Below, one piece after another: positions 1-13,979 of a stretch of DNA of 17,014 nucleotides. Where the stretch lies: positions 1 through 17,014 of the forward strand of contig JAWOHE010000075.1 of NCBI GenBank assembly GCA_046485285.1. The letters run 5' to 3'. The DNA is from a bacterium (GTDB lineage Bacteria; Hydrothermota; Tepidihabitantia; Tepidihabitantales; Tepidihabitantaceae). Under the pieces are notes generated by a model, which worked only from the letters and a program-made list of their open reading frames with translations, was not told where the DNA came from and did no database searches. The number at the start of each line of letters is the position of its first letter. Within the stretch, counting starts at the first letter, position 1. Both the position numbers and the translations under genes were made by a program.

Positions 1-1150
1 CCACGACCCGGATCCGGATGCCCCAGACCGTCCCGACCGCGGTCCCGGACACCGCCGGGTCCAGCTCCAGCCGGTCGCCGACGACCTCGTAGGTCACCTC
101 GACCGGCGTCTGGGTCGCGTAGAGCGTGAACACCCCGGGCTCGGTCAGCGGCACGCGGTCCGACCGCGACGTCAGGAACTCGTATCGCTTCCCCCGGAAA
201 TACACGTACGCGGTGACGTCGCCGATCGTCGAGAGAATCCCGGTCTGGCGCACCGTCAGCGAATCCCCGACCCGGAACGTCGGCAGCTCCTCGGTCGTGT
301 AGAACCGCTGCATCCCGTAGTTCAGCGTGTCGGGCCGGAGCAGCATCCGAAGCGTCGTGTCGGCCATCCCGACCCGCTTCGCCACCAGCCCCATGTAGAC
401 CACGTAAGGCGCGTCGTTCGGGTTCGGCGCGTAGAACCGCGACCCGCCCGACCACTTCCACGGCGACCAGGACCCGCCCGACTTCCGGAGCACCGCGCCG
501 TCGATGCTCGCGCCCTCGAAGGTCTTCACGACCTCCCGCGAAATCGGCGAAAAGACCTGCTCGAAGAACGGCAGGGCCAGCGTCTCGCCCGGCTGGGTCT
601 CGATCAGCGAATCACGCAGGTACTTCGTGTAGCTGAACGCACGGTACCTCAGGAGGCCCGGGATGGACTCCACCACCGTCACGGTCGCGGTCGTCTCGTA
701 CGCCCAGGTCGTCTCCGCGCCGGCCACGGACACCAGCGTGTCCACCGACGCGATGAACGACGGCGCGAACCGGCGGCCGGACGACGAAAACTCGCGCTGG
801 AAACCGTCGTGGCGGAACCTCTGCTTGAACGGGTTCTCGGTCACCTCCCTCCGCAGCCGCGTCGCGGTCGTCCCCGGCATCACGGTATCGCACGCGCGCA
901 GGGAGTCATCGTCGAACGCGGCGGTGAACAGCGACCGATTCGCCTCCACCCAGCCGTTTATCGCGGCCGAATCCTCGGCCGACGGCTCCCAGAACCCCTC
1001 CGGCGGCATCCGCCCGCACCCGGCCACCAGGGCCAGTGCGAGCGCGAAGCCTGCCCACCTGCCCGCGCGATGCGCGCAGGCGGGCCTGGCGAGCGAAGGC
1101 GCGCCTCTCTGGGCCCGCCTCCGGCCTGCCTCGCATACACTCTGCATCAT
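1..1150 (-). CDS. Putative lipoprotein, hypothetical (3' end beyond the window edge, at least 383 codons)
   Basis: Manual translation gives a stop-free minus frame from ATG 1150 (or ATG 1147) to the edge: MMQSVCEAGRRRAQRGAPSLARPACAHRAGRWAGFALALALVAG-C-GRMPPEGFWEPS...VWGIRIRVV. SD AAGGAGG at 1160-1154. Hydrophobic stretch followed by lipobox LVAG/C (Cys45, codon 1018-1016). Confidence 0.85.
   Translation of the reverse strand, partial: MMQSVCEAGRRRAQRGAPSLARPACAHRAGRWAGFALALALVAGCGRMPPEGFWEPSAEDSAAINGWVEANRSLFTAAFDDDSLRACDTVMPGTTATRLRREVTENPFKQRFRHDGFQREFSSSGRRFAPSFIASVDTLVSVAGAETTWAYETTATVTVVESIPGLLRYRAFSYTKYLRDSLIETQPGETLALPFFEQVFSPISREVVKTFEGASIDGAVLRKSGGSWSPWKWSGGSRFYAPNPNDAPYVVYMGLVAKRVGMADTTLRMLLRPDTLNYGMQRFYTTEELPTFRVGDSLTVRQTGILSTIGDVTAYVYFRGKRYEFLTSRSDRVPLTEPGVFTLYATQTPVEVTYEVVGDRLELDPAVSGTAVGTVWGIRIRVV
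1058..1084 (+). repeat. Family A palindromic element, 27 nt (copy 1), in frame within the lipoprotein signal-peptide n-region
   Basis: cctgcccgcgcgatgcgcgcaggcggg. Reads PACAHRAGR (codons 23-31) on the minus strand. Confidence 0.9.
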
Positions 1151-1303
1151 CAGCCTCCTTATGTGCCCTGCCGACAACGGACCCCGGACTCGGGTCTCCG
1201 GTCCCCGACGCGGCAGGAACCTCAGTCAAACCGGCAACTCTACCTCCGCACCCCGCCCCGGCCCGGGCCCTCCGAGGAACCGGGGTGCATTCAGCCTGCA
1301 CAG

Positions 1304-1331
1304 AATCTATGCGCAATATTCTCGGTGTCAA
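1304..1331 (-). promoter_or_regulatory. Sigma70-type promoter for the lipoprotein gene
   Basis: Minus strand TTGACA (1331-1326), 16-nt spacer, TAGATT (1309-1304). Confidence 0.6.
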
Positions 1332-1407
1332 GACGGTGATTGCCGGCCCGGACGCGAGCCGGGCATCGGCGGTCGGAAGCGGTCATCCCCCGCCCGGCGG
1401 CCCGGTA

Positions 1408-1435
1408 TTGACAACGCCGACTTCGGTCCTATCAT
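1408..1435 (+). promoter_or_regulatory. Sigma70-type promoter for the GNAT gene
   Basis: TTGACA (1408-1413), 16-nt spacer, TATCAT (1430-1435), 31 nt upstream of ATG 1467. Confidence 0.65.
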
Positions 1436-1466
1436 CCACCAGACCCGGCAACGAAACAAAACAGCG

Positions 1467-2420
1467 ATGAACGGGAAAGCGAGACTCGAGGTTCGGACGC
1501 TGGCGCCGGAACACTGGCGCCCGGTTGCCCGGCTCACGACGTCGATTTCGCGGGAACTCCGGGCCGAGGCACCCCGCCCGCTCAAAACCCAGCTCGCAAT
1601 ACTCTCCTCGCCTTGGCTGAAAGAGGAAGACGAGGCGCTGGTGCTCACCGAAACCGGCCGCGTGATCGGTTACGGTTGGGCCCGCGACCTCCCTTGGCGG
1701 GGGCGAACCGAATACGTCCACACCGGGCTCTTTCTCGCTCCCGAGGCGCGCTCGCCCGACCGCTACCGACTCCTCACCGACCGCCTCCTCGAGTCCGCCC
1801 GTCGCATCGCGCGGGAACGAGGTCGCCTCGAGGCGTGGATGCACTACCGGAGCATCGACACGGTCCATCCCCCGATTGTCCGGGCCATCGGCTTCCGCGA
1901 CACGCCGGTCGTGATGCTCGGTTTCAGCCACGACCTGACCCGGATACCGGACCTCCCGCCCCCGCCCGGGCTCGACTTCCGGCCTGCGCGCTTTCCCGAG
2001 GAACTCCCACTCATCCGGGAGTTGGCCCGCCGAAGTTTCACAAACCCCGAGACCGAAGGTGAGGCCGTGGAGCAGGACTTCTGGGACCTGTGGGCCGCGG
2101 ACTTCACCGCCGACCCCGAACTTCTCATCGTCGCCGATGCTGGCGGCGGCCCGGTCGGGTACTTGGCAGTCGCGCTTGCCGAGACACCCTCCTTCGCTGC
2201 GGAAATCGCCGAGACCGCGGTCGCTCCGGAGTGGCGCCGGCGCGGCATCGCCTCGCACCTCGCATCCCGTGCGCTCCGACACTGCCGCAAACGCCGCCTG
2301 CGTCGGGTCGTCCTGTCCGAGCTCAGCGCATCGCCCGCCGCCGCGATGCTCTGGCGCCTCGGCTTCAGACCTGACGCCGTCCGCACATACTACTTCTACA
2401 CCCGGCCGCTCGACATCTAG
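1467..2420 (+). CDS. GNAT family N-acetyltransferase (probably two GNAT domains, 317 aa)
   Basis: The C-terminal domain has the acetyl-CoA motif AVAPEWRRRGIASHL and LWRLGF. The N-terminal half has GRVIGYG...RAIGF. Start moved from 663 to ATG 1467, because the upstream part is antisense to the lipoprotein and spans two promoters. Confidence 0.8.
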   Translation: MNGKARLEVRTLAPEHWRPVARLTTSISRELRAEAPRPLKTQLAILSSPWLKEEDEALVLTETGRVIGYGWARDLPWRGRTEYVHTGLFLAPEARSPDRYRLLTDRLLESARRIARERGRLEAWMHYRSIDTVHPPIVRAIGFRDTPVVMLGFSHDLTRIPDLPPPPGLDFRPARFPEELPLIRELARRSFTNPETEGEAVEQDFWDLWAADFTADPELLIVADAGGGPVGYLAVALAETPSFAAEIAETAVAPEWRRRGIASHLASRALRHCRKRRLRRVVLSELSASPAAAMLWRLGFRPDAVRTYYFYTRPLDI

Positions 2421-2567
2421 CCGAGACCCGCCCTCCTCACCCTTCCTGGGCGCGGCCGGAGAAGCACCAAGACACGAAGACAGAGAATCCCTGTATCGCC
2501 CCCCCAAACCCTGTTCTTCTTCATGTATTTGTATCGAGTCCGCTCCTACCCGGAAGGCGCCCATGCC

Positions 2568-2595
2568 TTGACTCCCCGGGCGCCTGCCCTACAAT
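2568..2595 (+). promoter_or_regulatory. Sigma70-type promoter, near-leaderless, for the peptidase-efp-accC cluster
   Basis: TTGACT (2568-2573), 16-nt spacer, TACAAT (2590-2595). ATG follows 9 nt later with no SD. Confidence 0.7.
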
Positions 2596-2604
2596 CGAGT
2601 CGCC

Positions 2605-3687
2605 ATGAACAATCGCATACCGGCCTTGCGCCGATTGCTGGTCGGTGAAAATCTCGATGGCATCATCATCACCGATCTGGCCAACATCCGCTGGCTCTCC
2701 GGCTTCACCGGCTCCAACGCATTCGTTACCGTCACACGCTGGGGGGGCTGGTTGTACACCGATTTCCGGTACAAGGAGCAGTCCCGCCGGCAGGTGAGCG
2801 GATGTCGGGTTGCCGTGATCGAGCGCGGGCTGGTCGATAGCCTGCCTCTCGGGCCTCTGCGCGGGCTCAGGCGGGTCGGGGTCGAGAAACACCATTTACC
2901 TCTCTATGCGTTCGAGGCCATCCGGCGCCAGGTCCGGCCAATCGGGGCGAAGCTCGTGCCGGTCCGCAACCTAGTGCTGGAACTGCGCCGGGCCAAGGAC
3001 CCGGACGAGGTAAGGCTCATCGCCGCGGCCCAGCGCCACACTGACCGGGTGTTCCGGGAGGTGCTGGCGCTTGTCGCTCCCGGCGTCACGGAGCTGAGAC
3101 TGGCATCGGAAATCATCTGCCGCTTCAGCAGGGTCGGCGAGAGCGCTTTCCCGCCCATCGTCGCCTCCGGCCCGAACGGGGCAAAGCCGCACGCCGAACC
3201 CTCCGCCCGCAGGCTCCGGCCGGGCGACGCCGTCACCTTCGACATCGGCTGCCGTTACCGGGGCTACTGCTCGGATATGACCCGGACCGTCTTTGTTGGA
3301 CGTCCGCACCCGGACCTGCTCCAGGTCTACCACATCGTCCGCGAGGCCCAGCGCCGCGCCCTTGCCGAGGTCCGGCCCGGCGCCGCCTGCGCCGACGTCG
3401 ACCGCGCGGCCCGGGACTACATTGCCGACGCGGGCTACGGACCGCAGTTCGGCCACGGCCTCGGCCACGGCGTCGGCCTCGCGGTCCACGAACTCCCATC
3501 GGCCCACGCGCGTAGCCGACACGTGCTCGCGCCGGGCGATGTCCTGACGGTCGAGCCGGGCATCTACCTCCCCGGCCTCGGCGGCGTCCGCATCGAGGAT
3601 ATGGTCGCGGTGACCCGGACCGGCCGCCGCAACCTGACCCGCAGCCCCAAGGACGTGGTTCGCATCCAACCCCGTCACAAATCATGA
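2605..3687 (+). CDS. Xaa-Pro peptidase / aminopeptidase P family (M24B)
   Basis: Motifs NIRWLSGFTGS, TDFRY, GAKPH, FDIGCRYRGYCSDMTRT, HGLGHGVGLAVHE, TVEPGIY and GGVRIED. Usual position upstream of efp. Confidence 0.95.
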   Translation: MNNRIPALRRLLVGENLDGIIITDLANIRWLSGFTGSNAFVTVTRWGGWLYTDFRYKEQSRRQVSGCRVAVIERGLVDSLPLGPLRGLRRVGVEKHHLPLYAFEAIRRQVRPIGAKLVPVRNLVLELRRAKDPDEVRLIAAAQRHTDRVFREVLALVAPGVTELRLASEIICRFSRVGESAFPPIVASGPNGAKPHAEPSARRLRPGDAVTFDIGCRYRGYCSDMTRTVFVGRPHPDLLQVYHIVREAQRRALAEVRPGAACADVDRAARDYIADAGYGPQFGHGLGHGVGLAVHELPSAHARSRHVLAPGDVLTVEPGIYLPGLGGVRIEDMVAVTRTGRRNLTRSPKDVVRIQPRHKS

Positions 3688-3710
3688 ACTGTGAACCATA
3701 AACTAGCCAT

Positions 3711-4268
3711 ATGATCACCCCCAACGAGTTCCGCGCCGGCTCGCTCATCAGGTACCGGGACGGCATCTACGAAGTCCTCTCCTACCAGCGAAGCCGCACC
3801 GCCCAGCGCCGGGCGCGCGTTCAGGCGCGCATCCGCAACATCGACACCGGCGCCCAGATCGATGAGAGCTTCGAGTCGGAGCTCAAACTCGAGGAGGCCG
3901 ACCTCGAGCGCCGGAAGAGCCAGTTTATGTACGCCGACGACGTCGGCTACCACTTCATGGACCTCGTGACCTACGACCAGTTCGCCCTGCCCGTCGATGT
4001 GATTGGCGACAAGAAGTACTACCTGACCGACAACTGCGAAGTCGAGGTTGTGTACATCGACGGCGCGCCCAGGACCTTCCAGGTGCCGATATTCGTCGTC
4101 CTCGAGATCACCGAGACCGTGCCCGACTACAAGGGCGACACGGCCAGCGGCGGCGGCAAGCCGGCCACGACAGCCACCGGGCTCGTCGTCACGGTCCCCT
4201 TCTTTGTCAAGGTTGGCGACCGGATAAAGGTGGATACGCGCGAGAACAGCTACGTCGAGCGGGCATGA
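3711..4268 (+). CDS. efp: Translation elongation factor P (non-canonical tip loop)
   Basis: 185 aa. Motifs FMDLVTYDQ and KGDTASGGGKPATTATGLVVTVPFFVKVGDRIKVDTRENSYVERA. Confidence 0.95.
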   Translation: MITPNEFRAGSLIRYRDGIYEVLSYQRSRTAQRRARVQARIRNIDTGAQIDESFESELKLEEADLERRKSQFMYADDVGYHFMDLVTYDQFALPVDVIGDKKYYLTDNCEVEVVYIDGAPRTFQVPIFVVLEITETVPDYKGDTASGGGKPATTATGLVVTVPFFVKVGDRIKVDTRENSYVERA

Positions 4269-4277
4269 GCGGGGACC

Positions 4278-4304
4278 CCTGCCCGCGCGTTGCGCGCAGG
4301 CGGG
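4278..4304 (+). repeat. Family A palindromic element, 27 nt (copy 2), intergenic between efp and accC
   Basis: cctgcccgcgcgttgcgcgcaggcggg. Confidence 0.9.
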
Positions 4305-4368
4305 AGCGATCGGCGCTTCGCTTCCCGTCTCCCACCCCCCCCCGTTCTCCACGGCCGGAGTCTGAACG

Positions 4369-5703
4369 ATGAAGAAGGTGCTTGTCGCGAACCGGGGTGA
4401 GGTGGCGGTCCGGGTCGTCCGCGCCTGCCGCGACCTCGGCCTCGGGTCGGTGGTGACTTTTTCCGAGCCGGACCGGGACTCCCTGCCGGTGCTCATCGCC
4501 GACGAGGCGGTCTGCATCGGCCCCGCGCCGGCCGCGGACAGTTACCTGAACGTCTCCCGGGTGCTGTCCGCCGCGGAAATCAGCAACTGCGATGCCCTCC
4601 ACCCCGGCTACGGTTTCCTCTCCGAGTCGCCGGAGTTCGTCGAGGCGACCGAATCCTGCGGCCTGACCTGGGTCGGCCCCGGCGCGGAGACAATGCGCCT
4701 GCTCGGGGACAAGGTGAAGGCCCGGCGGACCGCGGCCGGGGCCGGGGTGCCGGTCCTGCCCGGCTCCGACGGCGAGGTGCGGGACTTCAAGGATGCCGCG
4801 CAGTTCGGCGCCGAGCTCGGCTACCCCCTGCTCATCAAGGCCGCGGCCGGCGGCGGCGGCAAGGGGATGCGGGTCGTCCGGAAGGCGCGCGACCTCGAAA
4901 GCGGGTTCAGGATGTGCCAGGCCGAGGCGAAGGCGGCGTTCGGCGATGGCCGGGTCTACGTCGAGCAGTACCTGTCCTCCGCCCACCACGTCGAGGTCCA
5001 GGTCCTCGCCGACCGGCACGACACCGTCATCCACCTCGGCGAGCGCGACTGCTCGGCCCAGCGCCGGCACCAGAAACTGCTCGAGGAATCGCCCTCGCCG
5101 ATCGTCGGTCCGGAGCTCCGCGAGAGGCTCGGCGGCTGGGCGGTCGCGGTCGCCCGCGCGGCCGGCTACGTCGGCGCGGGTACCGTCGAGTTCATCGTCG
5201 ACGCCGACGGCAACCCGTACTTCCTCGAGATGAACACCCGGCTCCAGGTCGAGCACGCGGTCACCGAGGAGGTCACCGACGTCGACATCGTCCGCCGCCA
5301 GCTCCAGATTGCCGCGGGCGAGACGCTCGACCTGCCCGCCGACGCCGGGGTCCCGCGCGGGCACGCGGTCGAGTGCCGCATCTACGCCGAGGACCCGGAC
5401 GCGGATTTCGAGCCGTCGCCCGGGCTCGTCACCGAGCTCAGGATGCCTGGCGGCCCTGGCATACGGGTCGAATCGTGTCTGATGCCGGGCTGGCGCATCC
5501 CGCCCCAGTACGACCCGCTGGTCGCGAAGATCATCGCTCGCGGCCGCGACCGGGCGCAGGCAATCACCCGGATGGACCGCGCGCTGGCCGAGACTGTCAT
5601 CGGCGGCGTCGCGACGACGGTCGGCTTCCACCGCCGCCTGCTCAAGAGCGGCCGGTTCCTGCGCGGCCAGCTCACGACCGCGATGCTCGACGAGGTCGGC
5701 TAG
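4369..5703 (+). CDS. accC: Biotin carboxylase subunit (acetyl-CoA carboxylase type)
   Basis: Motifs KKVLVANRGEVAVR, HPGYGFLSE, GGGGKGMR, ERDCSAQRRHQKLLEESP and FLEMNTRLQVEH. Stand-alone BC domain of 444 aa. Confidence 0.93.
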   Translation: MKKVLVANRGEVAVRVVRACRDLGLGSVVTFSEPDRDSLPVLIADEAVCIGPAPAADSYLNVSRVLSAAEISNCDALHPGYGFLSESPEFVEATESCGLTWVGPGAETMRLLGDKVKARRTAAGAGVPVLPGSDGEVRDFKDAAQFGAELGYPLLIKAAAGGGGKGMRVVRKARDLESGFRMCQAEAKAAFGDGRVYVEQYLSSAHHVEVQVLADRHDTVIHLGERDCSAQRRHQKLLEESPSPIVGPELRERLGGWAVAVARAAGYVGAGTVEFIVDADGNPYFLEMNTRLQVEHAVTEEVTDVDIVRRQLQIAAGETLDLPADAGVPRGHAVECRIYAEDPDADFEPSPGLVTELRMPGGPGIRVESCLMPGWRIPPQYDPLVAKIIARGRDRAQAITRMDRALAETVIGGVATTVGFHRRLLKSGRFLRGQLTTAMLDEVG

Positions 5704-5712
5704 CCCGGCATC

Positions 5713-5741
5713 TTGACATCCCGGCTCCCGGCGAATAGCAT
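5713..5741 (+). promoter_or_regulatory. Sigma70-type promoter for the TPR gene cluster
   Basis: TTGACA (5713-5718), 17-nt spacer, TAGCAT (5736-5741). The track's TTG start at 5713 is the -35 box. Confidence 0.65.
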
Positions 5742-5772
5742 TCCCCGAAGTGATGAGACTGGCGGCTCGGCC

Positions 5773-7683
5773 GTGAAGGACCGGCGACGGGAGTCGGGAA
5801 ACGGGTCCCCGGTGCCGCCCGCCTGCGCGAAACGCGCGGGTAGGCCGTTCGAGGCCGCGCTCGCCCGGGTCGATGCGATGGTCGCGCGCGCGGCCCGGCA
5901 GTTCCCTGAAGCCCTGCCCGCCTTCCACCCGGCCCGCCTGCGCGATTTCGCGGCCCTGGACCGGACCGAGGAAAACCCCGACATCGCCGCCTGGAGCGAC
6001 CTCGGCGGACCAGCCCGGCGCTGCGCGCCGGGCGGACAATCCGGAAACCTGCCGGAATCCTCCCTCTCTCCGCGCCGAGGGCGCGGCTTCCCGGCGGCTC
6101 TGGCCGCCGGGGCGACCGAGCCCGGCGCCGACGCTGACGCCGCCCGCCTCTTCTCCGCCGGCCGGGACCACGCCCTGGCCCTGCTCGCCGCCGAGGACCT
6201 CGGCGACGCCCTCCTGAGCGCGGACGAGCGCGAGCGGCTCATCATCCGGGCGGCCGGCGTCGCGCCCGCGGACTGCGCCGACCTGTTCGCCGAGCTCGCG
6301 CCCGGACCCGCGCTCGCGCCCGGCACTCTCGCCGGCGACCCGGCCGGGCTGGTGAGCGCGGTCCGGGCCATCGGCCGGCACTACCGGCCCGGCCCGGCGC
6401 TGGCCTGGGGAATGCTGGCACTCGCCAACTGCCGGGCTCCGGAGCAGTTGCGCGCGGCGGCCGGGAAGCTGGACCGTGCCGCCGGGCTGGTGACGTCCGC
6501 GTCCGCGGTCGCCCAGGCCTTCGAACGCGCCGCGGCCGCGTTCGACGCGCGCCGGGCGGTCGGGGTCCGCCGCCCCTCGACCGGCCTGTCCGCGCGTTTC
6601 GCGCAGGCGGGCGGCCAGGACCCCTGCCTCGAGACCGGGCTCGGCCTGCTCACAGCGGTCCGCGACCGGCTCTGGGAGCTTAAGCCCGACCGGGTCTCGA
6701 CCCCGTTCCTCCTGCCCCAGGTCCTCGACTGCTTCCTCGGCCCGGAGGCCGGGGTCGGCAACTCGCTCGGCCTGGCCCTGCTCGACGCGCTCGTCCTCGA
6801 CCGGCTCGGCTTCGAGTGCGGCTTCCTCGCCGACGGCGGCACGACCAGGCTCGAGGTCGGGCTCGAGGACCGCAAGGTCCACTGGCAGACGACCCGGCCC
6901 GGCCCGCTCGGCTTCATCGCCCCGGCCGGCGCGCGCCGGCTGTCGCTCGAGGAGCTGTTCGGCCTCGCCTGGTCGAGCCTCGCCGCCGCGCACTTCCTGA
7001 ACGGCAGGGTCGAGCCCGCGATCGCGAACTACGAGCGCGTCCTCGCGGTCCTGCCCGGGTCCGCCGACGCGCACCTGAACATCGGCAACTGCTGGCTCCG
7101 CCGCCGGATGCCGGACAAGGCGGCCGCGAGCTTCGAGCGGGCGGCCGAACTCCGCCACGACTTCGCCGAGGCGCTCTGCGGGCTCGGCAACGCCTTCTCG
7201 ATGCTCGAGCGCTGGCCGTGCGCCATCGCCGCCTATCGCCGGGCGGTCGCGGCCCGGCCCGACTACGTCGAGGCCTGGAACAACCTCGGCTTCGCCTACC
7301 AGCACCACGGCGACCCGGGGCAGGCCGTCGCCGCCTACCGCCGGGCGGTCGAGGCCCGGCCCGATTACGTCCAGGCGCACTTCAACCTCGGCAACGTCGC
7401 GCTCGAGCTCGAGCGCTGGGAGGACGCGGTCGGGCACTACCGCGAAGCGGCCAGGCTCCAGCCCTCGCTCGCCCAGGCCTGGTACAACATGGGCCAGGCG
7501 CTGTACCGCGCGGGCGAGCTCGACGGGGCCATCGCCGCCTATCGCCGGGCGGTCGAGGCGAACCCGAAGCACTTCGGCGCCTGGCACAACCTCGGCATCG
7601 CCTGGCGCGACAAGGGCGAGACCGATAAGGCGGTCGAGGCGATCGAGCGCGCGGTCGCCATCAACCCGAACCTGATGAGATGA
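5773..7683 (+). CDS. Tetratricopeptide repeat protein with a degenerate transglutaminase-like (SirB1-type) central region
   Basis: Seven consecutive 34-aa TPRs at the C-terminus (e.g. VEAWNNLGFAYQHHGDPGQAVAAYRRAVEARPDY). Central LLPQVLD...GNSLGLALL...RLG. Start uncertain: GTG 5773 (first in-frame start after the promoter) or ATG 5878. Confidence 0.85.
   Translation: MKDRRRESGNGSPVPPACAKRAGRPFEAALARVDAMVARAARQFPEALPAFHPARLRDFAALDRTEENPDIAAWSDLGGPARRCAPGGQSGNLPESSLSPRRGRGFPAALAAGATEPGADADAARLFSAGRDHALALLAAEDLGDALLSADERERLIIRAAGVAPADCADLFAELAPGPALAPGTLAGDPAGLVSAVRAIGRHYRPGPALAWGMLALANCRAPEQLRAAAGKLDRAAGLVTSASAVAQAFERAAAAFDARRAVGVRRPSTGLSARFAQAGGQDPCLETGLGLLTAVRDRLWELKPDRVSTPFLLPQVLDCFLGPEAGVGNSLGLALLDALVLDRLGFECGFLADGGTTRLEVGLEDRKVHWQTTRPGPLGFIAPAGARRLSLEELFGLAWSSLAAAHFLNGRVEPAIANYERVLAVLPGSADAHLNIGNCWLRRRMPDKAAASFERAAELRHDFAEALCGLGNAFSMLERWPCAIAAYRRAVAARPDYVEAWNNLGFAYQHHGDPGQAVAAYRRAVEARPDYVQAHFNLGNVALELERWEDAVGHYREAARLQPSLAQAWYNMGQALYRAGELDGAIAAYRRAVEANPKHFGAWHNLGIAWRDKGETDKAVEAIERAVAINPNLMR
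5818..5844 (-). repeat. Family A palindromic element, 27 nt (copy 3, inverted)
   Basis: Reverse complement is cctacccgcgcgtttcgcgcaggcggg. Reads PACAKRAGR in the TPR frame if the gene starts at 5773. Confidence 0.88.
6013..6112 (+). mobile_element. Family B 100-nt multi-hairpin MITE-like element (copy 1), in frame in the TPR gene
   Basis: 89/100 identical, ungapped, to the reverse complement of 10774-10873. Four stem-loops, termini CCCGGCG...CGCCGGG. Encodes ARRCAPGGQSGNLPESSLSPRRGRGFPAALAAG. Confidence 0.8.
6585..6611 (+). repeat. Family A palindromic element, 27 nt (copy 4), in frame in the TPR gene
   Basis: cctgtccgcgcgtttcgcgcaggcggg. Peptide LSARFAQAG. Confidence 0.9.
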
Positions 7684-7729
7684 CCCTGAACCTCGAACCT
7701 TCCCCGGCCCGCGGGAGCCGGGTCTAGCG

Positions 7730-8395
7730 ATGCCGCCCCGCCTCCGCCTCGACGCCGAGCGCTCGCTCGAAATCTCGCTCGCCCGGCTCTCGCCCCGCAT
7801 CGGCTGCGGCCTGATGCTCGGCGGCCTGCCCGGGCTCGGCGGCCCGGAGCCGCTGCTCAACATAATGGAGAACTATGGCTACGGCCGCCTCGCCGCGGAC
7901 AAGCCCGGCCGCAAGGTAGTCGAGAACAGCTCCCTGCTCAAGACCTTCCACGAGAACGCCTTCATCCAGAAACTGCCCATCCGCCGCAACTTCCAGCAGG
8001 TCTACGGCCAGCGCGATGTCCTGCTCGCCCTCGACGAGCGCGAGAAGCGGGCCTGGTTCGTCGGCGACCCCCAGAACCGCCTCGTCCTCGCCAACTACCA
8101 CCGCGACTCGCTCGCGCTCGGGCTCAAGCCCCACGGCGTCGCACTCGTCGGCTCGATGGTCCGGCTCTCGGCCGTCGGCTGGCAAAACCTCGCCGAGCTC
8201 CTCGACGACAGGTTCCTCGACGCCCACCCCGAAGTCCAACGGGTGGAGGTGCTGACCGTGATTACCGGCGTCCGCTGGCGCCCGCCCTGCCTCGGCATCG
8301 GCGCGTCGTTCCTCAATTTCCAGGAACTCGAGAAGGTCAGCCGGGCGGCCGCGGCCGTCCTCCGCGGCGAGGCCGGCGGCGAAATCCCGGGCTGA
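7730..8395 (+). CDS. Hypothetical protein (221 aa)
   Basis: Protein-like composition, GC-rich third codon positions, fills the gap between co-oriented genes. No family recognised. Confidence 0.75.
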   Translation: MPPRLRLDAERSLEISLARLSPRIGCGLMLGGLPGLGGPEPLLNIMENYGYGRLAADKPGRKVVENSSLLKTFHENAFIQKLPIRRNFQQVYGQRDVLLALDEREKRAWFVGDPQNRLVLANYHRDSLALGLKPHGVALVGSMVRLSAVGWQNLAELLDDRFLDAHPEVQRVEVLTVITGVRWRPPCLGIGASFLNFQELEKVSRAAAAVLRGEAGGEIPG

Positions 8396-8401
8396 CGGCG
8401 A

Positions 8402-8508
8402 GACGAAGGAACCGGGGGACAAAGGGATGAAGGGAGGAAGGGGCAAAACCTCCCCTTCCGCTTCCTCCCCTTCCTGTTCTCGCCCTTCCGCTCCTCCCCC
8501 TTCCGCCT
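8402..8508. repeat. Purine-rich 8-mer tandem (GAnnAAGG) followed by a complementary pyrimidine-rich tract
   Basis: GACGAAGG AACCGGGG GACAAAGG GATGAAGG GAGGAAGG (8402-8441), then CCTTCC-rich units at 8449-8508. Confidence 0.65.
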
Positions 8509-10283
8509 GCGGCTTCCCGGCGGCCCGGGCCCGGGCCGCCGGGCTTCTCGTGCCGTTGTGCCTGGGTTTCACCCTCGCCGCGCCTGCGACCATCGCCATT
8601 GACGAGCTCAGGCCCGGGATGACCGGCTTCGGCCTCAGCGTCTTCGCCCCCGGCGGCCGGGTCGACACCTTCGCGGTCGAGCTCGTCGACGTGATGCGCA
8701 ACGTCGCGCCCCAAAGCGACCTCATCCTCGTCCGCTGTTCCGGCCAGGGCCTGGAGCATTCCGGCATCGTCGCCGGGATGTCGGGCAGTCCCGTCTACTT
8801 CGAGGGCCGCCTCGCCGGCGCGCTGGCCTACGGCTGGGGCTTTGCCAAGGACCCGGTCGGCGGCGTCACGCCGATAGCCGAGATGCTGGCGCTCCTCGAC
8901 CTGCCCGACCCGCCCCCGGCCTCCCCCCGCTCTGGCGTGCCCGGCCCGTCGCCCGGCCTGTCCGCGCGTTTCGCGCAGGCGGGCCTGCCCGCGCGTTGCG
9001 CGCAGGCGGGCCCGGCCGGCTCGCTTCCCCGGCTCCGCCTGCCGCTCGGCATTGCCGGCGGCTCGCGCGGCCTGCCCGCGCTCGCGGCCCCGCTCATCGA
9101 GGAGGCCGGCTTCCTGCCGGTCGCGGCCGGCGCGGTGCCGGGAGCCGGTCCCCGGTCGCCGGGCTCCTCGTTTGAGCCCGGTTCCGCGGTCTGCGTCCTG
9201 CTCGCCGACGGCGACTTCACCGCCGCCGCGGTCGGCACCGTAACCTGGGTCGAGGGCGACCGCCTGCTCGCCTTCGGCCACCCGATGTTCCAGGCCGGCC
9301 CGGCCGCGATGCCGATGGCGCCGGCCGAGGTCCACGCGGTCGTCGCCAGCTACGCCAGCTCGATCAAGCTCTTCTCGCCCGGCCCGCCGGTCGGCACGGT
9401 CGTCCAGGACCGGGCAACGGCAATCAGCGGCGTCGTCGGCCCGGCGGCGCCGATGTTCCCGGTCCGGGTGTCGCTCGCGACCCCGGGCCTCGAGCGCGAG
9501 TACCGCTACCGGGTCGCCCGGGTCGGCCCGCTCGTCCCGGTCATCGCCGCGATCGGGGTCGCCGACGTCGTCTACGCGACCGAGGGCGTCCACGAGGAGG
9601 CGACCCTCGAGGCCGACGTCCGGCTCAAGCTCGCCGGCCGCCCGGCGCTCGCGCTCCGCCACGTCTTCACCAGCCGCGCGCCGGCCGCGCTCCTCGCCGG
9701 AACGCTTGCCGACCGGCTCCGGCTCCTGCTCGAGAACCGCTTCGAGCCGGTCGAGGTCGAGAGTATCACCGTCGCGCTCGACCTCCGCCCGGGCCTCCGC
9801 CGGCTGACAATCACCGGCGCCCGGCCGTCGCGGACGACGGTCGCGCCCGGCGAAACGCTCTCGCTCTGGCTGTCACTGCGCGACGACGCGGGCCGGGCCT
9901 CGTCCCGCCGCTTCAGCGTCACCATCCCGCCGACCGCGCCCGCCGGCCGGCTCGCGCTCGCGGTCTCGTCCGCGGACAGCGCCCTGCTCCGCGACCTCTC
10001 CCGCGCCCAGGGCGCGGCCGAGCCGCGCTCGCTCGCCGAGCTCGCCGACCTGCTCGAGAAGACCGGCAACGAGGACGAGCTGGTGATTGCCGGCTACTCG
10101 TCCGCGCCCGGCCTCGCGCTCGGCACCCGCGAACTGCCCGCCGCCCCGCCGACCCTGCTCGGCCTGCTCGGCTCCGGCCGCCGCCTGCGCCTCGCGGCCG
10201 AGAGCCGGCTCTTCGTCGTGCGCGAGCGGCTCGACGGCGTGATTGCCGGCAGCCACGAAGTCCTGCTGGAGGTGAAGCGATGA
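8427..10283 (+). CDS. SpoIVB peptidase S55 domain-containing protein (probably secreted)
   Basis: ELRPGMTGFGLSVF, SGIVAGMSGSPVYFEGRLAGALAYGW, GVTPIAEM, GTVTWVEGDRLLAFGHPMF. Hydrophobic signal-like segment LLVPLCLGFTLAAPA. Start uncertain. Confidence 0.85.
   Translation: MKGGRGKTSPSASSPSCSRPSAPPPSACGFPAARARAAGLLVPLCLGFTLAAPATIAIDELRPGMTGFGLSVFAPGGRVDTFAVELVDVMRNVAPQSDLILVRCSGQGLEHSGIVAGMSGSPVYFEGRLAGALAYGWGFAKDPVGGVTPIAEMLALLDLPDPPPASPRSGVPGPSPGLSARFAQAGLPARCAQAGPAGSLPRLRLPLGIAGGSRGLPALAAPLIEEAGFLPVAAGAVPGAGPRSPGSSFEPGSAVCVLLADGDFTAAAVGTVTWVEGDRLLAFGHPMFQAGPAAMPMAPAEVHAVVASYASSIKLFSPGPPVGTVVQDRATAISGVVGPAAPMFPVRVSLATPGLEREYRYRVARVGPLVPVIAAIGVADVVYATEGVHEEATLEADVRLKLAGRPALALRHVFTSRAPAALLAGTLADRLRLLLENRFEPVEVESITVALDLRPGLRRLTITGARPSRTTVAPGETLSLWLSLRDDAGRASSRRFSVTIPPTAPAGRLALAVSSADSALLRDLSRAQGAAEPRSLAELADLLEKTGNEDELVIAGYSSAPGLALGTRELPAAPPTLLGLLGSGRRLRLAAESRLFVVRERLDGVIAGSHEVLLEVKR
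8509..8543 (+). repeat. Partial family B element (terminal hairpin) containing a perfect 28-bp palindrome
   Basis: gcggcttcccggcggc-ccgggcccgg-gccgccggg matches the family B end gcggcttcccggcggc-tctg-gccgccggg. 8516-8543 is self-complementary. Confidence 0.7.
8957..9010 (+). repeat. Tandem dimer of family A elements (copies 5 and 6), in frame in the S55 gene
   Basis: cctgtccgcgcgtttcgcgcaggcggg + cctgcccgcgcgttgcgcgcaggcggg. Peptide LSARFAQAGLPARCAQAG. Confidence 0.92.
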
Positions 10284-12367
10284 ACCTTGTCCTGCTTTCC
10301 GCGCTCGTCCTCGTCCCCGCCGCCTGGACCTCGACCGGGCTCGACCTGCTCCGCTCCGAGCGGGCTCCCCGGCTCGAGAACGTCCTCGTCGACCACGACG
10401 GCGCGATCCGTCTCTCCGCCGGCCGCGAACTGCTCGCCGAGCTGGACGCCGACGCGGTCTGGCGCCTCGCGGCCGCGCCGGGCGGCGCATGGTATGTCGG
10501 CACCGGCTCCGACGGCCGGCTCTACACGGTCGGCCGGGCCGCCCCGGTGTTCGACTCGGTCGGCGAGGGCGACCTGCTCGCGGTCGCCCCCGACGCGCGG
10601 GCGGGCGTGCTCTTCGGCCTCACGCCCGGCGGCACGGTCCACCGCCTGGCCCCCGGCCGCGCGCCCGAGCAGGTTCTCGCGACCGGCGAGGACTACGTCT
10701 TCGACCTGCTCGCCGCCCCGGGCGGCGAATTCTACGCCGCGACCGGCGCCGCCGGCCGCCTCTACCGCTTCTCCCCCGGCGGCCAGAGCCGCCGGGAAGC
10801 CGCGCCTTCGGCGCGGAGAGAAGGAGAATTCCGGCAGGATTCCGGAACGGACTCCCGGCGCGTGGCGCCGGGCGAGCTCGTCTTCACCGCGCCGCAGGCC
10901 CACATCACCTGCCTTGCCTGGCTCGAACCGGGCCGGGTCCTGCTCGCCGGCACCTCGCCCGACGGCATTGTCTACCGGCTTGATATCCCGCCCGGCCGGG
11001 CCCGCCCCGAAGTCTCGGTCCTCTACGACACGCCCTACGACGAGGTCCGCGCGCTCGCGGTCGCCGGCGCCGGCGAGGATGCGATTGTCTTCGTCGCCGC
11101 CAACGGCTCGGCCGGCGGCACGGCCGGTCCGCCGCCGCCCCGGCCCGGCGGCGGACCTGCCCGCGCCCCGGCAGGCGGGCCGGAACCCGGCGCGGTACTC
11201 TGCGTCCGCCCGAACGGCGTGCGGGACTGGCAGTGGAGCGCGCCGGAATCGGCCGTCTACGACCTCGCGGTCCGGGACGGGGAAGTCCTCGTCGCGACCG
11301 GCCGGGAAGGGCTCATCTACCGGCTCGACCGGCTCGGCCGGGCGGCCCTCTTCGCGCAACTGCCCGCCGCCCGCGTCCTCTGCCTGGTCCCGGACGGTGC
11401 CGGCCTCGTTGCCGGCACTTCGGAACCGGCCGCGGTCTTCCGCCTCCCGGCCGGCCTCGCCGCGTCGGGCAGCGTCGAGTCCGAGGTCCGCGACTGCGCC
11501 GGGCCGGCGACCTTCGGCCGCATCGAACACCGCGCGACGGTCCCCTCCGGCGCCTCGCTCGCGCTCGACACCCGGACCGGCAACTCGGAGCGGCCCGACT
11601 CGACCTGGAGCGAATGGCTGCCTGCCGACGGCACGGTCCGCTCCCGGCCCGCCCGCTTCATCCAGTGGCGCGCGCGGCTGGGTTCCAGCTTCCCCGGCCG
11701 CACCCCGACCCTCGAGCGCGTCACGATTCACTACCGGGTTCCCAACCGGCCGCCCCGGGTAACCGAACTCGCGGTCAGCGAGCCCAGCCCGGCCGAGGCC
11801 GCCCGCGGCGCCGCGAACCCGGTCCGGGAAATCACCTGGACCGCCGCGGACCCTGACGAAGACTCGCTCGCCTTCACCCTGTCCTGCCGGCCGGACGGCC
11901 TCGACCGCTGGCTCGTCCTCGCCGAGGACCTCGGCCAGCCCCGCCACGAGCTCGACACCCGACTCCTGCCCGATGGCTGGTACCGCTTCCGCGTCGAGGC
12001 GACCGACGCGCCGGCCCGGCCCGCGTCCGAGGCCGCCCGGTCCGAGGTCGTCTCGCCGCCCGCGCTGGTTGACAACACCCCGCCCCGCGTGACCGGGCTC
12101 CGGCTCGACGGCCCGCCTGCCGCGGCGCGGGCAGGCGACCGCCTGCTCTTCACCGTCACCGACGCCGCCTCGCCGCTCGCCGCCGCCCGGGTCGCGGTCA
12201 ACGCCGGGCCCTGGCAGCCGGCCCTCCCGCTCGACGGGCTGTTCGACCGGGAAGAGGAGCGGTTCGCGGTCCCGGTCTCGCTCCGGCCGGGCGCGAACCA
12301 CGTCGCGGTCTGGGCCGCGGACGCCCGCGGCAACGCCGCGAGCGCGGCCGTCACCGTCACCCGCTGA
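10280..12367 (+). CDS. Secreted beta-propeller-repeat protein with C-terminal Ig/FN3-like domains (hypothetical)
   Basis: Signal-like N-terminus. Repeated blades (YVGTGSDGRLY, YAATGAAGRLY, LAGTSPDGIVY, LVATGREGLIY). C-terminal DTRLLPDGWYRFRVEATD and VDNTPP. ATGA overlap with the S55 gene. Confidence 0.8.
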   Translation: MNLVLLSALVLVPAAWTSTGLDLLRSERAPRLENVLVDHDGAIRLSAGRELLAELDADAVWRLAAAPGGAWYVGTGSDGRLYTVGRAAPVFDSVGEGDLLAVAPDARAGVLFGLTPGGTVHRLAPGRAPEQVLATGEDYVFDLLAAPGGEFYAATGAAGRLYRFSPGGQSRREAAPSARREGEFRQDSGTDSRRVAPGELVFTAPQAHITCLAWLEPGRVLLAGTSPDGIVYRLDIPPGRARPEVSVLYDTPYDEVRALAVAGAGEDAIVFVAANGSAGGTAGPPPPRPGGGPARAPAGGPEPGAVLCVRPNGVRDWQWSAPESAVYDLAVRDGEVLVATGREGLIYRLDRLGRAALFAQLPAARVLCLVPDGAGLVAGTSEPAAVFRLPAGLAASGSVESEVRDCAGPATFGRIEHRATVPSGASLALDTRTGNSERPDSTWSEWLPADGTVRSRPARFIQWRARLGSSFPGRTPTLERVTIHYRVPNRPPRVTELAVSEPSPAEAARGAANPVREITWTAADPDEDSLAFTLSCRPDGLDRWLVLAEDLGQPRHELDTRLLPDGWYRFRVEATDAPARPASEAARSEVVSPPALVDNTPPRVTGLRLDGPPAAARAGDRLLFTVTDAASPLAAARVAVNAGPWQPALPLDGLFDREEERFAVPVSLRPGANHVAVWAADARGNAASAAVTVTR
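10774..10873 (-). mobile_element. Family B 100-nt element (copy 2, inverted), in frame in the beta-propeller gene
   Basis: Reverse complement aligns ungapped to 6013-6112 with 11 mismatches. Lies between RLYRFS and ELVFTAP, giving PGGQSRREAAPSARREGEFRQDSGTDSRRVAPG. Confidence 0.8.
11156..11179 (+). repeat. Family A palindromic element, 24-nt variant (copy 7), in frame
   Basis: cctgcccgc-gccccg-gcaggcggg. Peptide PARAPAGG. Confidence 0.85.
12112..12135 (-). repeat. Family A palindromic element, 24-nt variant (copy 8, inverted), in frame
   Basis: Reverse complement is cctgcccgc-gccgcg-gcaggcggg. Peptide PPAAARAG. Confidence 0.85.
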
Positions 12368-12370
12368 GCG

Positions 12371-12796
12371 GTGAGCGACCGGACCGGCTGGCGCAGGCTC
12401 GAGCACACCGCCGACCTGCTGGTCGAGTTCCGGGCCGCGGACCGGGCCGGTCTGTTCCGGGTCGCGGTCGACTTCCTCGCGCCGACCCTGCTCGGCCGCC
12501 CGGCCGAGCCGCGCTTACCCCGGCACGTCTCGCTCCGCTCCGCCGACCCGGCCGAGCTCTTCCTCGACTGGCTCCGCGAGCTCGCCTTCCTGCTCTCGAC
12601 CGGCTTCGTCCCGGCCCGCGTCGAAGAGCTCGATCTGTCCGGGGAAGACCGGGCCCTGCGCGCCCGGCTCGTCGGCGAGGAACTCGACCCTGCCCGCGGC
12701 CGCCTGCGCCTGGAAATCAAGGGCCCGACCTACCACGGCTTCGCCTTCGGCCCGGACGCCGGCGGCTTTCGGGCAAAGGTGCTCTTCGACGTCTAG
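12371..12796 (+). CDS. Archease
   Basis: N-terminal LEHTAD, LFLDWLRELAF, EIKGPTYH and terminal VLFDV. 141 aa, GTG start. Confidence 0.92.
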   Translation: MSDRTGWRRLEHTADLLVEFRAADRAGLFRVAVDFLAPTLLGRPAEPRLPRHVSLRSADPAELFLDWLRELAFLLSTGFVPARVEELDLSGEDRALRARLVGEELDPARGRLRLEIKGPTYHGFAFGPDAGGFRAKVLFDV

Positions 12797-12815
12797 GACC
12801 GGCTCAGGCCGGTCC
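12796..12815. terminator. Hairpin at the convergent junction of archease and the desulfurase (possible terminator or stabiliser)
   Basis: ggaccggc-tcag-gccggtcc, an 8-bp perfect stem overlapping both stop codons. No U-tract. Confidence 0.3.
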
Positions 12816-13979
12816 CGGCCGGTTCTTCCATATCGGCGAGATCGCCCGCAGTCGGCTGACGACCCGCTCGAACACCTCGAGCGTGTAGTCAACGTCCTCC
12901 GCGGTCGTCTCGCGCCCGAGCGAGAACCGGAGCGGCGAGTTGCGGAACAGCGGCGGGATATCGATCGCTTCGAGCGTCGGCGACGGTCCGCCCTCGCCCG
13001 CCGAGCAGGCCGACCCCGAGGCGAGCGCGATTCCCTCGAGGTCGAGGCTGAGCAGCAGCGCCTCACCCTCGACGTAGCCGACGCTGAAGTGGGCGGTGTT
13101 GGGCAGGCGCTTCTCCGGGTGGCCGTTCCGCCGGACCTCCGCGACTCGGGCGAGGATGCCCTGCTCGAGCCGGTCGCGGTTCGCCCGCATCCGGGCCGCG
13201 TCCTCGCGCCACTCGGCCGCGGCGAGCTCGCAGGCCCGGCCCAGCCCGACGATGCCCGCGACGTTCTCGGTCCCGGCCCGGAGCCCGCGCTCCTGGTGGC
13301 CGCCGTGAATCAGTGGGTCGATCTCGACCCCGTCCCGGATGTAGAGCGCGCCGACGCCCTTCGGCGCGTGGAGCTTGTGGCCGGAGATGGTCAGCAGGTC
13401 CACCCCCAGCGCCCGGACGTCGACCTCGATCTTGCCCGCGGCCGCGACCGCGTCGGTATGGCAGGCGACCCCGCGCTCGCGGCAGGCCACCGCTATCTCG
13501 CGCACCGGCTCGACCGTCCCGATCTCGTTGTTCGCGAGCATCACCGTGACGAGGACCGTGTCCTTCCGGAGCGCGCGCCGGACGTCATCCGGGTCGACGA
13601 GCCCGTAACCGTCAACCTTGAGCCACGAGACCTCGAAGCCCCGGCCGCCGAGATACTTGACGGACTCGAGCACCGCGCCGTGCTCGATCGGGCTTGCGAC
13701 GATGTGCCGGCCCCGGCCCTCGTGCCGGAACGCGGTGCCGATGACCGCCCAGTTGTCGGCCTCGCTGCCGCCGCCGGTGAAGTAGACCTCACCGGGCTTG
13801 GCGTTGAGGAAGCGCGCGACCTGCTCCCGGGCCTCGGCCAGCCCCTCCGCGCACTCCCGTCCGAAGCTGTGCAGGTTCGACGGGTTGCCGAACAGCTCGG
13901 CCAGGTACGGCCGCATCGCCGCCGCCACCCGGGGGTCGAGCGGCGTCGTCGAGTTATTGTCGAGGTAGACCCGTCTCAC
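12804..13979 (-). CDS. iscS: Cysteine desulfurase (IscS/NifS, group I)
   Basis: VYLDNNSTTP, FGNPSNLH, NNEIGTV, HTDAV, SGHKLHAPKGVGAL (PLP lysine), RAGTEN and SGSACS (catalytic cysteine). Confidence 0.93.
   Translation of the reverse strand: MRRVYLDNNSTTPLDPRVAAAMRPYLAELFGNPSNLHSFGRECAEGLAEAREQVARFLNAKPGEVYFTGGGSEADNWAVIGTAFRHEGRGRHIVASPIEHGAVLESVKYLGGRGFEVSWLKVDGYGLVDPDDVRRALRKDTVLVTVMLANNEIGTVEPVREIAVACRERGVACHTDAVAAAGKIEVDVRALGVDLLTISGHKLHAPKGVGALYIRDGVEIDPLIHGGHQERGLRAGTENVAGIVGLGRACELAAAEWREDAARMRANRDRLEQGILARVAEVRRNGHPEKRLPNTAHFSVGYVEGEALLLSLDLEGIALASGSACSAGEGGPSPTLEAIDIPPLFRNSPLRFSLGRETTAEDVDYTLEVFERVVSRLRAISPIWKNRPGPA

Follow-up and report, generated by a model that had tools for sequence, protein, structure and literature searches.

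We analysed a 17,014-nt stretch of DNA, hereafter the window, and find that a short repeat within it, Family A, is likely to be an ultra-short, non-autonomous mobile DNA element. The window is the entire contig JAWOHE010000075.1 (C8) of a bacterial genome of the Tepidihabitantaceae (Hydrothermota; GCA_046485285.1, here G000), which comprises 2,339,643 bases in 102 contigs at 69% G+C and, like all genomes involved in this work, is draft or metagenome-assembled. Family A has fixed ends (5'-CCTGCCCGC...GCAGGCGGG-3') and a unit of 24 or 27 nt with about 85% G+C; it is real, and as an ultra-short mobile repeat it is probably new. An earlier note on the window, made from its letters alone, had listed eight copies, and each is present where, and on the strand on which, the note had placed it:

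1058 to 1084, plus strand: 27-mer with loop ATG, in the signal-peptide n-region of the lipoprotein encoded by minus-strand gene 2-1177, where it reads PACAHRAGR
4278 to 4304, plus strand: intergenic 27-mer of consensus sequence with loop TTG, located after the efp stop (4268) and before the accC start (4369)
5818 to 5844, minus strand: 27-mer variant CCTACCC..TTT, in the non-conserved N-terminal region of the TPR protein encoded by gene 5713-7683 (residues 36-44, PACAKRAGR)
6585 to 6611, plus strand: 27-mer variant CCTGTCC..TTT, in frame at residues 291-300 of the TPR protein (GLSARFAQAG)
8957 to 9010, plus strand: two 27-mers head to tail (8957-8983, 8984-9010) that keep the frame of the S55-like peptidase gene 8427-10283 and add 18 residues to its product
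11156 to 11179, plus strand: 24-mer, in frame in the beta-propeller-like gene 10280-12367 (residues 293-300, PARAPAGG), in a variable loop
12112 to 12135, minus strand: 24-mer, in frame in gene 10280-12367 (residues 612-619, PPAAARAG)

The exact pattern, CCTGCCCGC and GCAGGCGGG separated by six or nine nucleotides, matches at 1058, 4278, 8984, 11156 and 12112 (minus strand), five times in all, and not once in 200 dinucleotide shuffles. With up to three mismatches the 27-mer consensus also finds 5818 (minus strand), 6585 and 8957, making six of six 27-mers (0 expected), and the 24-mer consensus finds its two copies, 11156 and 12112 (minus strand), where 0.01 are expected. Chance and base composition were considered as sources of the repeat and ruled out, since the motif is absent from the shuffles and from reversed-pattern controls; the earlier note had named a motif no rarer in shuffled sequence as evidence against its own reading. 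Seven of the eight copies lie in open reading frames (ORFs) and the one at 4278 is intergenic, again as described before, and direct reading of both unit lengths shows no stop codon in any of the six frames. The peptides quoted earlier were reproduced: PACAHRAGR (in the context ...SLAR-PACAHRAGR-WAGFALALALVAGC), PACAKRAGR, (G)LSARFAQAG twice, (G)LPARCAQAG, PARAPAGG and (G)PPAAARAG. The coding status of 5818 is borderline, with a score of 0.19 on the codon scale introduced below. The copies at 6585-6611 and 8957-8983 are identical (CCTGTCC...TTT...) and this variant is found nowhere else in the genome, which suggests that one may have been copied from the other across 2.4 kb.

Comparison with orthologues had been named beforehand as the decisive test, and it gives clean gaps at several window copies and on two further contigs. 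The comparison set consists of four same-genus genomes with 70-90% DNA identity to G000, one of which, G004, is syntenic across the whole window. The tandem pair at 8957 and 8984 corresponds to an 18-residue gap in three of three same-genus orthologues. The copy at 12112 corresponds to an exact 24-nt gap in G004 DNA and to an 8-residue gap in the four closest orthologues (52-64% identity) of a 16-orthologue alignment drawn from a 5.8-billion-protein collection; this segment is missing from 12 of the 16, and the segment at 11156 from 15 of the 16, the closest orthologue having another insert there. The copy at 6585 faces a gap in G004 within a variable region, and the efp-accC spacer of G004 and G002 shows no counterpart of the one at 4278, in alignments that are poor. 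For 1058, where the N-terminus of the G004 orthologue differs, and for 5818, the comparison does not resolve an empty site.

Seven further sites were aligned on contigs C53 and C65, where the flanks are up to 90% identical to G004. Exact gaps of 24 or 27 nt appear at five of them (C53:20923, C53:27092, C65:12141, C65:17668 and C65:19176), and larger gaps that contain the element at C53:33206 and at the pair at C65:11238. Exact empty sites in orthologues mean that Family A copies are insertions, which the alignments show to be precise, with no extra bases, at many places in the genome. Several relatives are without each copy, so that gain in the G000 lineage is the most economical interpretation. 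In G003, another of the same-genus genomes, the allele that is empty at C53:33206 retains TCTTGACA.

Across G000, a search with up to four mismatches returned 61 look-alikes at 53 sites; nine of the single sites have 3-4 mismatches and are open to doubt, some five of these resembling chance matches in ordinary genes. Copies with exact arms number 36 in G000 and 8, 2, 1 and 0 in the four same-genus genomes (the 0 being G003), and the reversed pattern occurs in none of these genomes. On C8, C65, C93, C94 and C98, units stand head to tail in arrays of 2-3. Three contigs, C8, C65 and C53, hold 18 of the 29 good sites that lie outside the helix-turn-helix (HTH) modules described below, in 75 kb of 2.34 Mb. 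Rare variants recur within one contig (C8 6585=8957, C53 19138=33206, C59 18690=18828), and the probability that two random positions share a contig is 0.014. Three copies (C53:19138, C53:33206 and C49:10613) have a common 5' flank, ...GTCAAG, the complement of which, CTTGAC, resembles a -35 box. The arm 9-mers themselves are over-represented in G000 (CCTGCCCGC has 320 occurrences and its reversed control 66; GCAGGCGGG has 199 and its reversed control 76), mostly outside the elements, and the surplus may consist of common codon strings or of old, decayed copies; in this GC-rich genome the 9-mers are too common for a solo-arm search for a full-length insertion sequence (IS) with these termini to be informative.

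Coding status at the 29 sites was scored by a codon log-odds measure trained on 287 long ORFs and set against 2000 random positions:

Score of at least 0.2: 15 of 29 element sites, 76% of random positions
Score of 0 to 0.2: 4 of 29 element sites, 10% of random positions
Score below 0: 10 of 29 element sites, 13% of random positions

Family A is depleted from coding sequence relative to random positions and is far from excluded from it, the pattern predicted if insertion is random and selection then acts on the outcome. Copies are found in both orientations and in all six reading frames (the earlier note had counted four), which bears out its view that conservation does not act on protein; what is conserved is DNA. 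The only variants of 25 nt and 26 nt (C49:10613 and C98:23436) have at least one flank with stops and no coding signal. In hosts that could be mapped with Pfam, the insert lies outside domains, between domains or in a barrel. Such an insert is found in the barrel of a TonB-dependent receptor and in the linker that follows an M28 peptidase domain; a DtxR-like repressor carries one at its N-terminus, a GT4 glycosyltransferase at its C-terminus and a DinB protein in its C-terminal tail. LEA_2, DUF1893 and asparagine-synthase-like proteins are further hosts.

The sequence at which copies are inserted resembles the element itself. The empty site at C65:19176 reads GAGT-GCGGGCCTGC-TGACG and that of the HTH module CCT-GCGGGCCTGC-GG, where GCGGGCCTGC is the 10-mer formed by the joined ends of the element, its 3' end ..GCGGG followed by its 5' end CCTGC... 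At C65:17668 the element entered GG^CCTG, bordering a sister hairpin also present in G004, and the insertion at C53:20923 adjoins C(G/C)CTGCC. CCTG opens the 3' flank at nine of the 29 non-module sites (background 0.6%), and the 5' flank closes with CGG at nine (background 5%) and with GGG at eight (background 1.9%). What look like duplications differ in length between sites (6 nt and 10 nt at the two clearest) and in every case fall on the element ends, so no independent target-site duplication can be recognised; a candidate at a further locus (L030, with AATCAAA on both sides) was rejected, as removing 27+7 nt breaks the frame and removing 27 nt keeps it. At 50 copies from other phyla, described below, position -1 is a purine in 47 and position +1 is C in 38, with no duplication. 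These flanks show a preferred target that resembles the joined ends, GCGGG^CCTGC, and of which AT-rich genomes appear to keep only the purine^C step. Junction-like targets, arrays and clustering would fit local hopping by an enzyme for which the ends and the target are the same sequence. The sister hairpin at C65, CCTGTCTGCGTGCGGACCCGCACC(C/G)GCAGGCTGGCAGG, starts at 17692 directly after a stop codon and is common to G000 and G004; the 24-mer at its 5' edge is in G000 only.

A further target is a fixed site in a repeated module, at which 15 sites (18 copies) are found on contigs C1, C22, C37, C39, C58, C65, C86, C87, C90, C91, C93-C96 and C101, many of them at contig ends. Module copies are 86-92% identical to one another. 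In the example at C95:30245-33271 (L008, positions 970-1560), a 12-nt tandem array of TCCCCCTACCGT, about 16 units that change to the complement, is followed by an AT-richer leader with TTGAC(C/A)-17-TAACAT, read by eye as a putative sigma-70-like promoter, and then by a small HTH gene of the XRE type. Many G000 copies of this gene look truncated and the G000 HTH copy falls under the Pfam cut-off (24.6 versus 27 bits); the G004 paralogue is a 259-aa HTH_31/HTH_3 protein, and G002 also has full-length paralogues. Five paralogues in G002 and G004 are element-free, reading GACTACCTGCGGG^CCTG(C/T)GGGGCG or ...CCTGCCGGGCG, so that the sequence across the site is ...GACTACCTGCGGG^CCTGCGGGGCGTCGTTC... 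or a near variant, and all 15 G000 modules carry 1-3 units at the position of the caret. The insertion probably came before the module expanded in the G000 species. Most module 27-mers differ from the consensus by 0-2 mismatches and are more uniform than their flanks, while unit number varies, which points to ongoing turnover or conversion at this site.

The same arms are found far outside the genus. When 185,579 species, each represented by a single genome, were searched with the 27-mer pattern CCTGCCCGCGCG-NNN-CGCGCAGGCGGG, 52 stretches were found in 34 assemblies, all metagenome-assembled and, going by their titles, from the candidate phyla radiation (CPR/Patescibacteria), Omnitrophota, Latescibacterota, Nitrospirae, Delta- and Gammaproteobacteria, Syntrophales, Anaerolineales, Planctomycetales, WOR-3 and unclassified bacteria; two of the 52 come from a high-GC genome matching G004. 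The loci span 35% to 73% G+C, and at low G+C the chance occurrence of 24 specified bases is negligible. About 12 stretches carry the exact G000 consensus 27-mer with loop TTG. Many copies are nested just 5' of the 3' arm of sister hairpins (CGCCTGCCTG...CAGGCAGGCG or CCTGTCTGCGTG...CGCACAGGCAGG), and the larger repeats around the 27-mers are compound hairpins of 42-228 nt, too short for a gene. A mechanical longest-ORF assignment places these copies in all six frames, xLPARxAQAG being the commonest reading (15 of 52), and copies lie in frame in long ORFs at 35-54% GC. At eight long-ORF loci the hosts include an IleRS-like synthetase (1004-aa frame), CarB, GyrB, a UvrD-like helicase and other helicases, CarB and GyrB being named from PDB matches and the remainder read from sequence. 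CarB aligns to solved structures with a gap at the insert, and the GyrB insert falls in an unaligned linker between two matched domains. The element is thus not confined to accessory genes, where the earlier note had placed its window copies: low-GC CPR bacteria carry it in IleRS-like, CarB, GyrB and UvrD-like genes, some of which are essential. The presence of the same arms in so many phyla would suggest horizontal spread or dependence on a conserved enzyme.

A looser pattern, CCTGYCYGC-N3-15-GCRGRCAGG, matches at 105 places in a complete 5.4-Mb Latescibacterota genome (G031), at 13, 6 and 4 places in three small genomes and at none in G000. Unit lengths in G031, counted by hand for about 75 listed places with a pattern blind to units longer than 33 nt, are as follows:

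33 nt: 53 places
30 nt: 8 places
27 nt: 3 places
24 nt: 1 place
31 nt (Family A 27-mer plus four bases): 4 places
Other lengths that are not multiples of three: 6 places

Most of the G031 matches are 33-nt units of several subtypes, and four of its six Family A 27-mers are nested at one point of different 33-mers, giving compound repeats of about 60 nt. A multiple-of-three rule at the level of a superfamily is suggested by these lengths, but the 33-nt limit of the pattern and the probability that the 33-mers are one lineage leave it unproven. Superfamily hairpins were absent (0) from 80 metagenome loci around distant relatives of the S55-like gene, so the superfamily is not ubiquitous, and the 27-mer pattern had 0 matches in viral contigs. 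We propose tentatively, and with slightly more doubt than conviction, a cross-phylum superfamily of codon-length hairpin transposons (24, 27, 30 and 33 nt; ends CCTGCC(T/C)GC...GC(A/G)GGC(A/G)GG) that would live in coding sequence, including essential CPR genes, nest in one another and be moved by a conserved or horizontally shared unlinked enzyme.

Family A itself owes its survival in coding sequence to a length that is a multiple of three and to its landing in tolerated loops, linkers and termini, where it is predicted to contribute 8-9 residues in whichever of the six frames it falls. New copies tend to arise near, beside or inside old ones, giving head-to-tail arrays and nested forms. Movement would proceed through single-stranded DNA or a hairpin on which an enzyme acts in trans, its gene lying away from the element; our leading guess is an enzyme of the HUH or the tyrosine-recombinase type. 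The earlier note had drawn the repeat as a hairpin. As single-stranded DNA the 27-mer does fold in this way (11 pairs, one of them T.G, with a single C.A mismatch and a loop of 3 nt; -10.5 kcal/mol on one strand and -11.8 kcal/mol on the other), but the 24-mer forms no convincing hairpin when compared with shuffles, favouring a CCTGCC/GGCAGG stem that leaves the CGGG tail free.

One rival explanation is that the repeat is an element of the repetitive extragenic palindromic (REP) kind, mobilised by a RAYT/IS200-type Y1 HUH transposase of the genome. Insertion without target-site duplication agrees with this, as does a 5' flank that often repeats the 3' end of the element (...GCGGG), which is expected if the left and right cleavage sites are alike, and head-to-tail arrays fit insertion 3' of such a site. 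One PF01797 (Y1 HUH) gene is indeed present in G000, the only one, at C44:28803-29132 (51 bits; 50.7 bits on the ORF), and encodes an HVH-type protein. The link to HUH/RAYT enzymes drawn earlier nevertheless finds no backing at this gene: C44 has no Family A copy, and no superfamily hairpin occurs in 16 Y1 loci of about 2-3 kb each, the C44 locus included, from eight of nine genomes searched, the ninth having no hit; action in trans would still be conceivable. Y1 genes are present in four of four genus relatives, among them G003 with its 0 exact copies, and in three of five other element-bearing genomes, the remaining two being without a Y1 match. The consensus has no GTAG foot, inverted REPIN doublets are lacking, and the Y1 ORF carries an internal duplication with a frame change, all of which makes this explanation unlikely. 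We rate as similarly improbable an enzyme-free spread by template switching or short-homology recombination, in which a nascent or invading strand with the junction-like GCGGGCCTGC at its end anneals to a nearby copy or an array, is extended by one unit and switches back. Two independent empty sites contain the joined-ends 10-mer and others GGCCTG or CCTGCC, arrays of 2-3 units exist, sites cluster strongly with variants shared on the same contig, and no mobiliser was found, as this model would have it. Low-GC flanks, however, match the element only at purine^C (for example ...AAATCAAA^AATCAAAG and ...GAAAAAAA^GCAAATG), and microhomology cannot explain insertions into flanks without homology; the model also leaves unexplained the identical 12-nt arms in many phyla and why this sequence alone should spread.

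Less probable again is integration by a tyrosine recombinase of the Xer or integron-integrase kind, with a folded single strand as its substrate and recombination between the joined ends and a similar core in the target. Folded-strand integration has parallels in CTX phage and attC sites. The target does equal the joined ends, both borders resemble the core after insertion, copies often enter or adjoin sister hairpins and their loops, and a conserved host enzyme would give reach across phyla without a linked gene. Yet no recombinase gene is linked to the element, although no search for recombinases was made, its arms are unlike dif, and a substrate of 24-27 nt is far below the size of known attC or folded attP sites. 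Family A might instead be a functional motif under selection, whether as a peptide module, a palindrome bound by a protein, a signal for DNA uptake or a structured RNA; this reading is disfavoured and we consider it very improbable. It could account for xLPARxAQAG as the commonest reading in other phyla, as counted by longest-ORF assignment, and for HTH-module 27-mers that are more uniform than their flanks, but the repeat is read in six frames and both orientations, orthologues do without the segment, the sites fall in loops, termini and spacers that are unrelated to one another, no Rfam family matches, and about one copy per 40 kb is too few for an uptake signal.

Several observations weigh against mobility as we propose it. 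No enzyme that would move the element was found, Y1 being the one class for which we searched. Junction-like targets, arrays and local clustering equally fit enzyme-free template switching. The 27-mer hairpin is only modestly better than GC-rich shuffles (z -1.7 and -2.4 for the two strands) and 24-mers fold no better than theirs (z +0.5 to -0.5), so that a hairpin intermediate is something we infer. We found no strain-level relative in which presence or absence within a population could be followed (the best match to the S55-like protein in a metagenome scan has 60% identity, and that to the 695-aa protein in the 5.8-billion-protein collection 64%); it is empty sites and distribution that point to movement. 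Translation of the inserts is likewise presumed from their reading frames. Codon-score calls near gene ends are uncertain, and C65:19176 may lie in either of two overlapping frames. Junctions in other phyla are known from assembled genomes alone.

The Y1 locus has peculiarities of its own. In its ORF (L028, C44:27303-29910, positions 1462-2204) the internal duplication, about 80 nt, puts ...HYLLAAVRYVERNPVRARLAKRAWD in two overlapping frames, and 3' of the gene (L028 2250-2400) lie a palindrome of its own, GTAACTCCCCCGGT/ACCCCGGGAGTTAC, and then a diverged copy of the HTH-module leader.

No description of Family A came up in literature searches of the main text of papers: sequence words gave primers and unrelated hits, with the exception of a Neisseria REP (below), and keywords gave REPIN, HUH, MITE (miniature inverted-repeat transposable element) and PARCEL papers. 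Rfam gave 0 matches in the window and in two HTH-module loci. Like REP and REPIN sequences, which are imperfect palindromes of 20-40 nt, Family A is short, GC-rich, dispersed, non-autonomous, often clustered and without target-site duplication, and its 27-mer may be a palindrome of the same sort (passages in PMC3116915 and bioRxiv 10.1101/2021.07.10.451892). Unlike those extragenic repeats, it has seven of its eight window copies in ORFs and at least half of its sites inside genes; its arrays are head-to-tail rather than inverted doublets, its consensus is without GTAG, and its Y1 gene is unlinked, whereas REPs flank their RAYT gene. The Neisseria REP has only the 11-mer GCGCAGGCGGG in common with Family A (bioRxiv 10.1101/2021.07.10.451892). 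PARCEL (palindromic amphipathic repeat coding elements), which the title of its source paper describes as distributed horizontally among diverse microbes (PMC2996958), is likewise a palindromic coding repeat; it is tandem and intragenic, encodes a defined amphipathic module and in this differs from a dispersed 24-27-nt insert that may be read in any frame.

IS200/IS605 elements and palindrome-associated transposable elements (PATEs) may share with Family A hairpin ends, the lack of target-site duplication and insertion beside a short match to the cleavage site. Gaps are exact (24 or 27 nt) and the 5' flank is CGG or GGG at 17 of 29 sites, whereas other phyla keep only the purine at -1, so that a fixed target of the IS200/IS605 type is no more than possible. 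Those elements, however, have two distinct end hairpins and a TnpA of their own or in trans, in contrast to a single 24-27-nt unit with no linked TnpA. MITEs, which are DDE-transposase derived, are set apart by terminal inverted repeats with a fixed-length target-site duplication, the apparent duplications of Family A being variable and AT-rich flanks showing none that is consistent.

Closer in habit are the Rickettsia palindromic elements (RPEs), which Ogata and colleagues reportedly described in 2000 as palindromic selfish DNA inserted in frame in protein genes, where the added peptide is tolerated. With a length of about 100-150 bp, RPEs are AT-rich and known only from Rickettsia. Family A resembles them in being inserted in ORFs with the frame kept and in being absent from orthologues; it differs in its 24-27 nt, its roughly 85% G+C and its many phyla. 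Small dispersed repeats (SDRs) of heterocystous cyanobacteria are said by Elhai and colleagues to be 21-27-nt hairpin-forming repeats, apparently mobile and nested, with no known mobiliser; they are like Family A in size and nesting and unlike it in sequence and taxa. Yeast mitochondrial GC clusters and 'byp' elements are also short GC-rich palindromic mobile insertions, found inside coding sequence of AT-richer genomes as well. Both are organellar, and byp elements are not a multiple of three in length and are bypassed by the ribosome, a bypass that the length of Family A makes unnecessary.

If our interpretation is right, Family A would be among the smallest apparently mobile DNA elements known, its success tied to its multiple-of-three length, and selfish DNA would be spreading through coding sequence, even IleRS-like, CarB and GyrB genes of reduced genomes, by adding 8-9 loop residues. 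It would offer a concrete mechanism for some of the short lineage-specific protein insertions of uncultivated bacteria and, if the cross-phylum superfamily is borne out, a previously unrecognised source of loop insertions in bacterial proteins. Identical arms across phyla make it testable which enzyme recognises so small a substrate, with GCGGG^CCTGC as a defined assay target. In metagenome-assembled genomes, inserts of this kind can also cause errors when genes are called, proteins aligned or strains typed.

The genes of the window, as identified by Pfam, are as follows:

2605-3687, plus strand: M24 peptidase
3711-4268, plus strand: efp
4369-5703, plus strand: accC
5713-7683, plus strand: TPR protein
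8427-10283, plus strand: S55-like peptidase
10280-12367, plus strand: beta-propeller-like protein
12371-12796, plus strand: archease
12804-13979, minus strand: class-V aminotransferase (iscS-like)
13954-14514, minus strand: lspA
14528-15472, minus strand: TackOD1 and Mrr_cat gene
15558-16682, plus strand: DUF362

The M24 peptidase, efp, accC, class-V aminotransferase, lspA and DUF362 genes, which had earlier been described as free of the element, keep these identities and contain no copy. The minus-strand gene 14528-15472 joins a TackOD1 domain (E 1.8e-37) to an Mrr_cat restriction-endonuclease domain (E 3.9e-08). The plus-strand ORF 663-2420 (585 aa) has a GNAT domain restricted to residues 451-568, and its G004 counterpart is 357 aa long, with the alignment starting at residue 234; the ORF is probably over-extended, its 5' part overlapping the minus-strand lipoprotein gene 2-1177.

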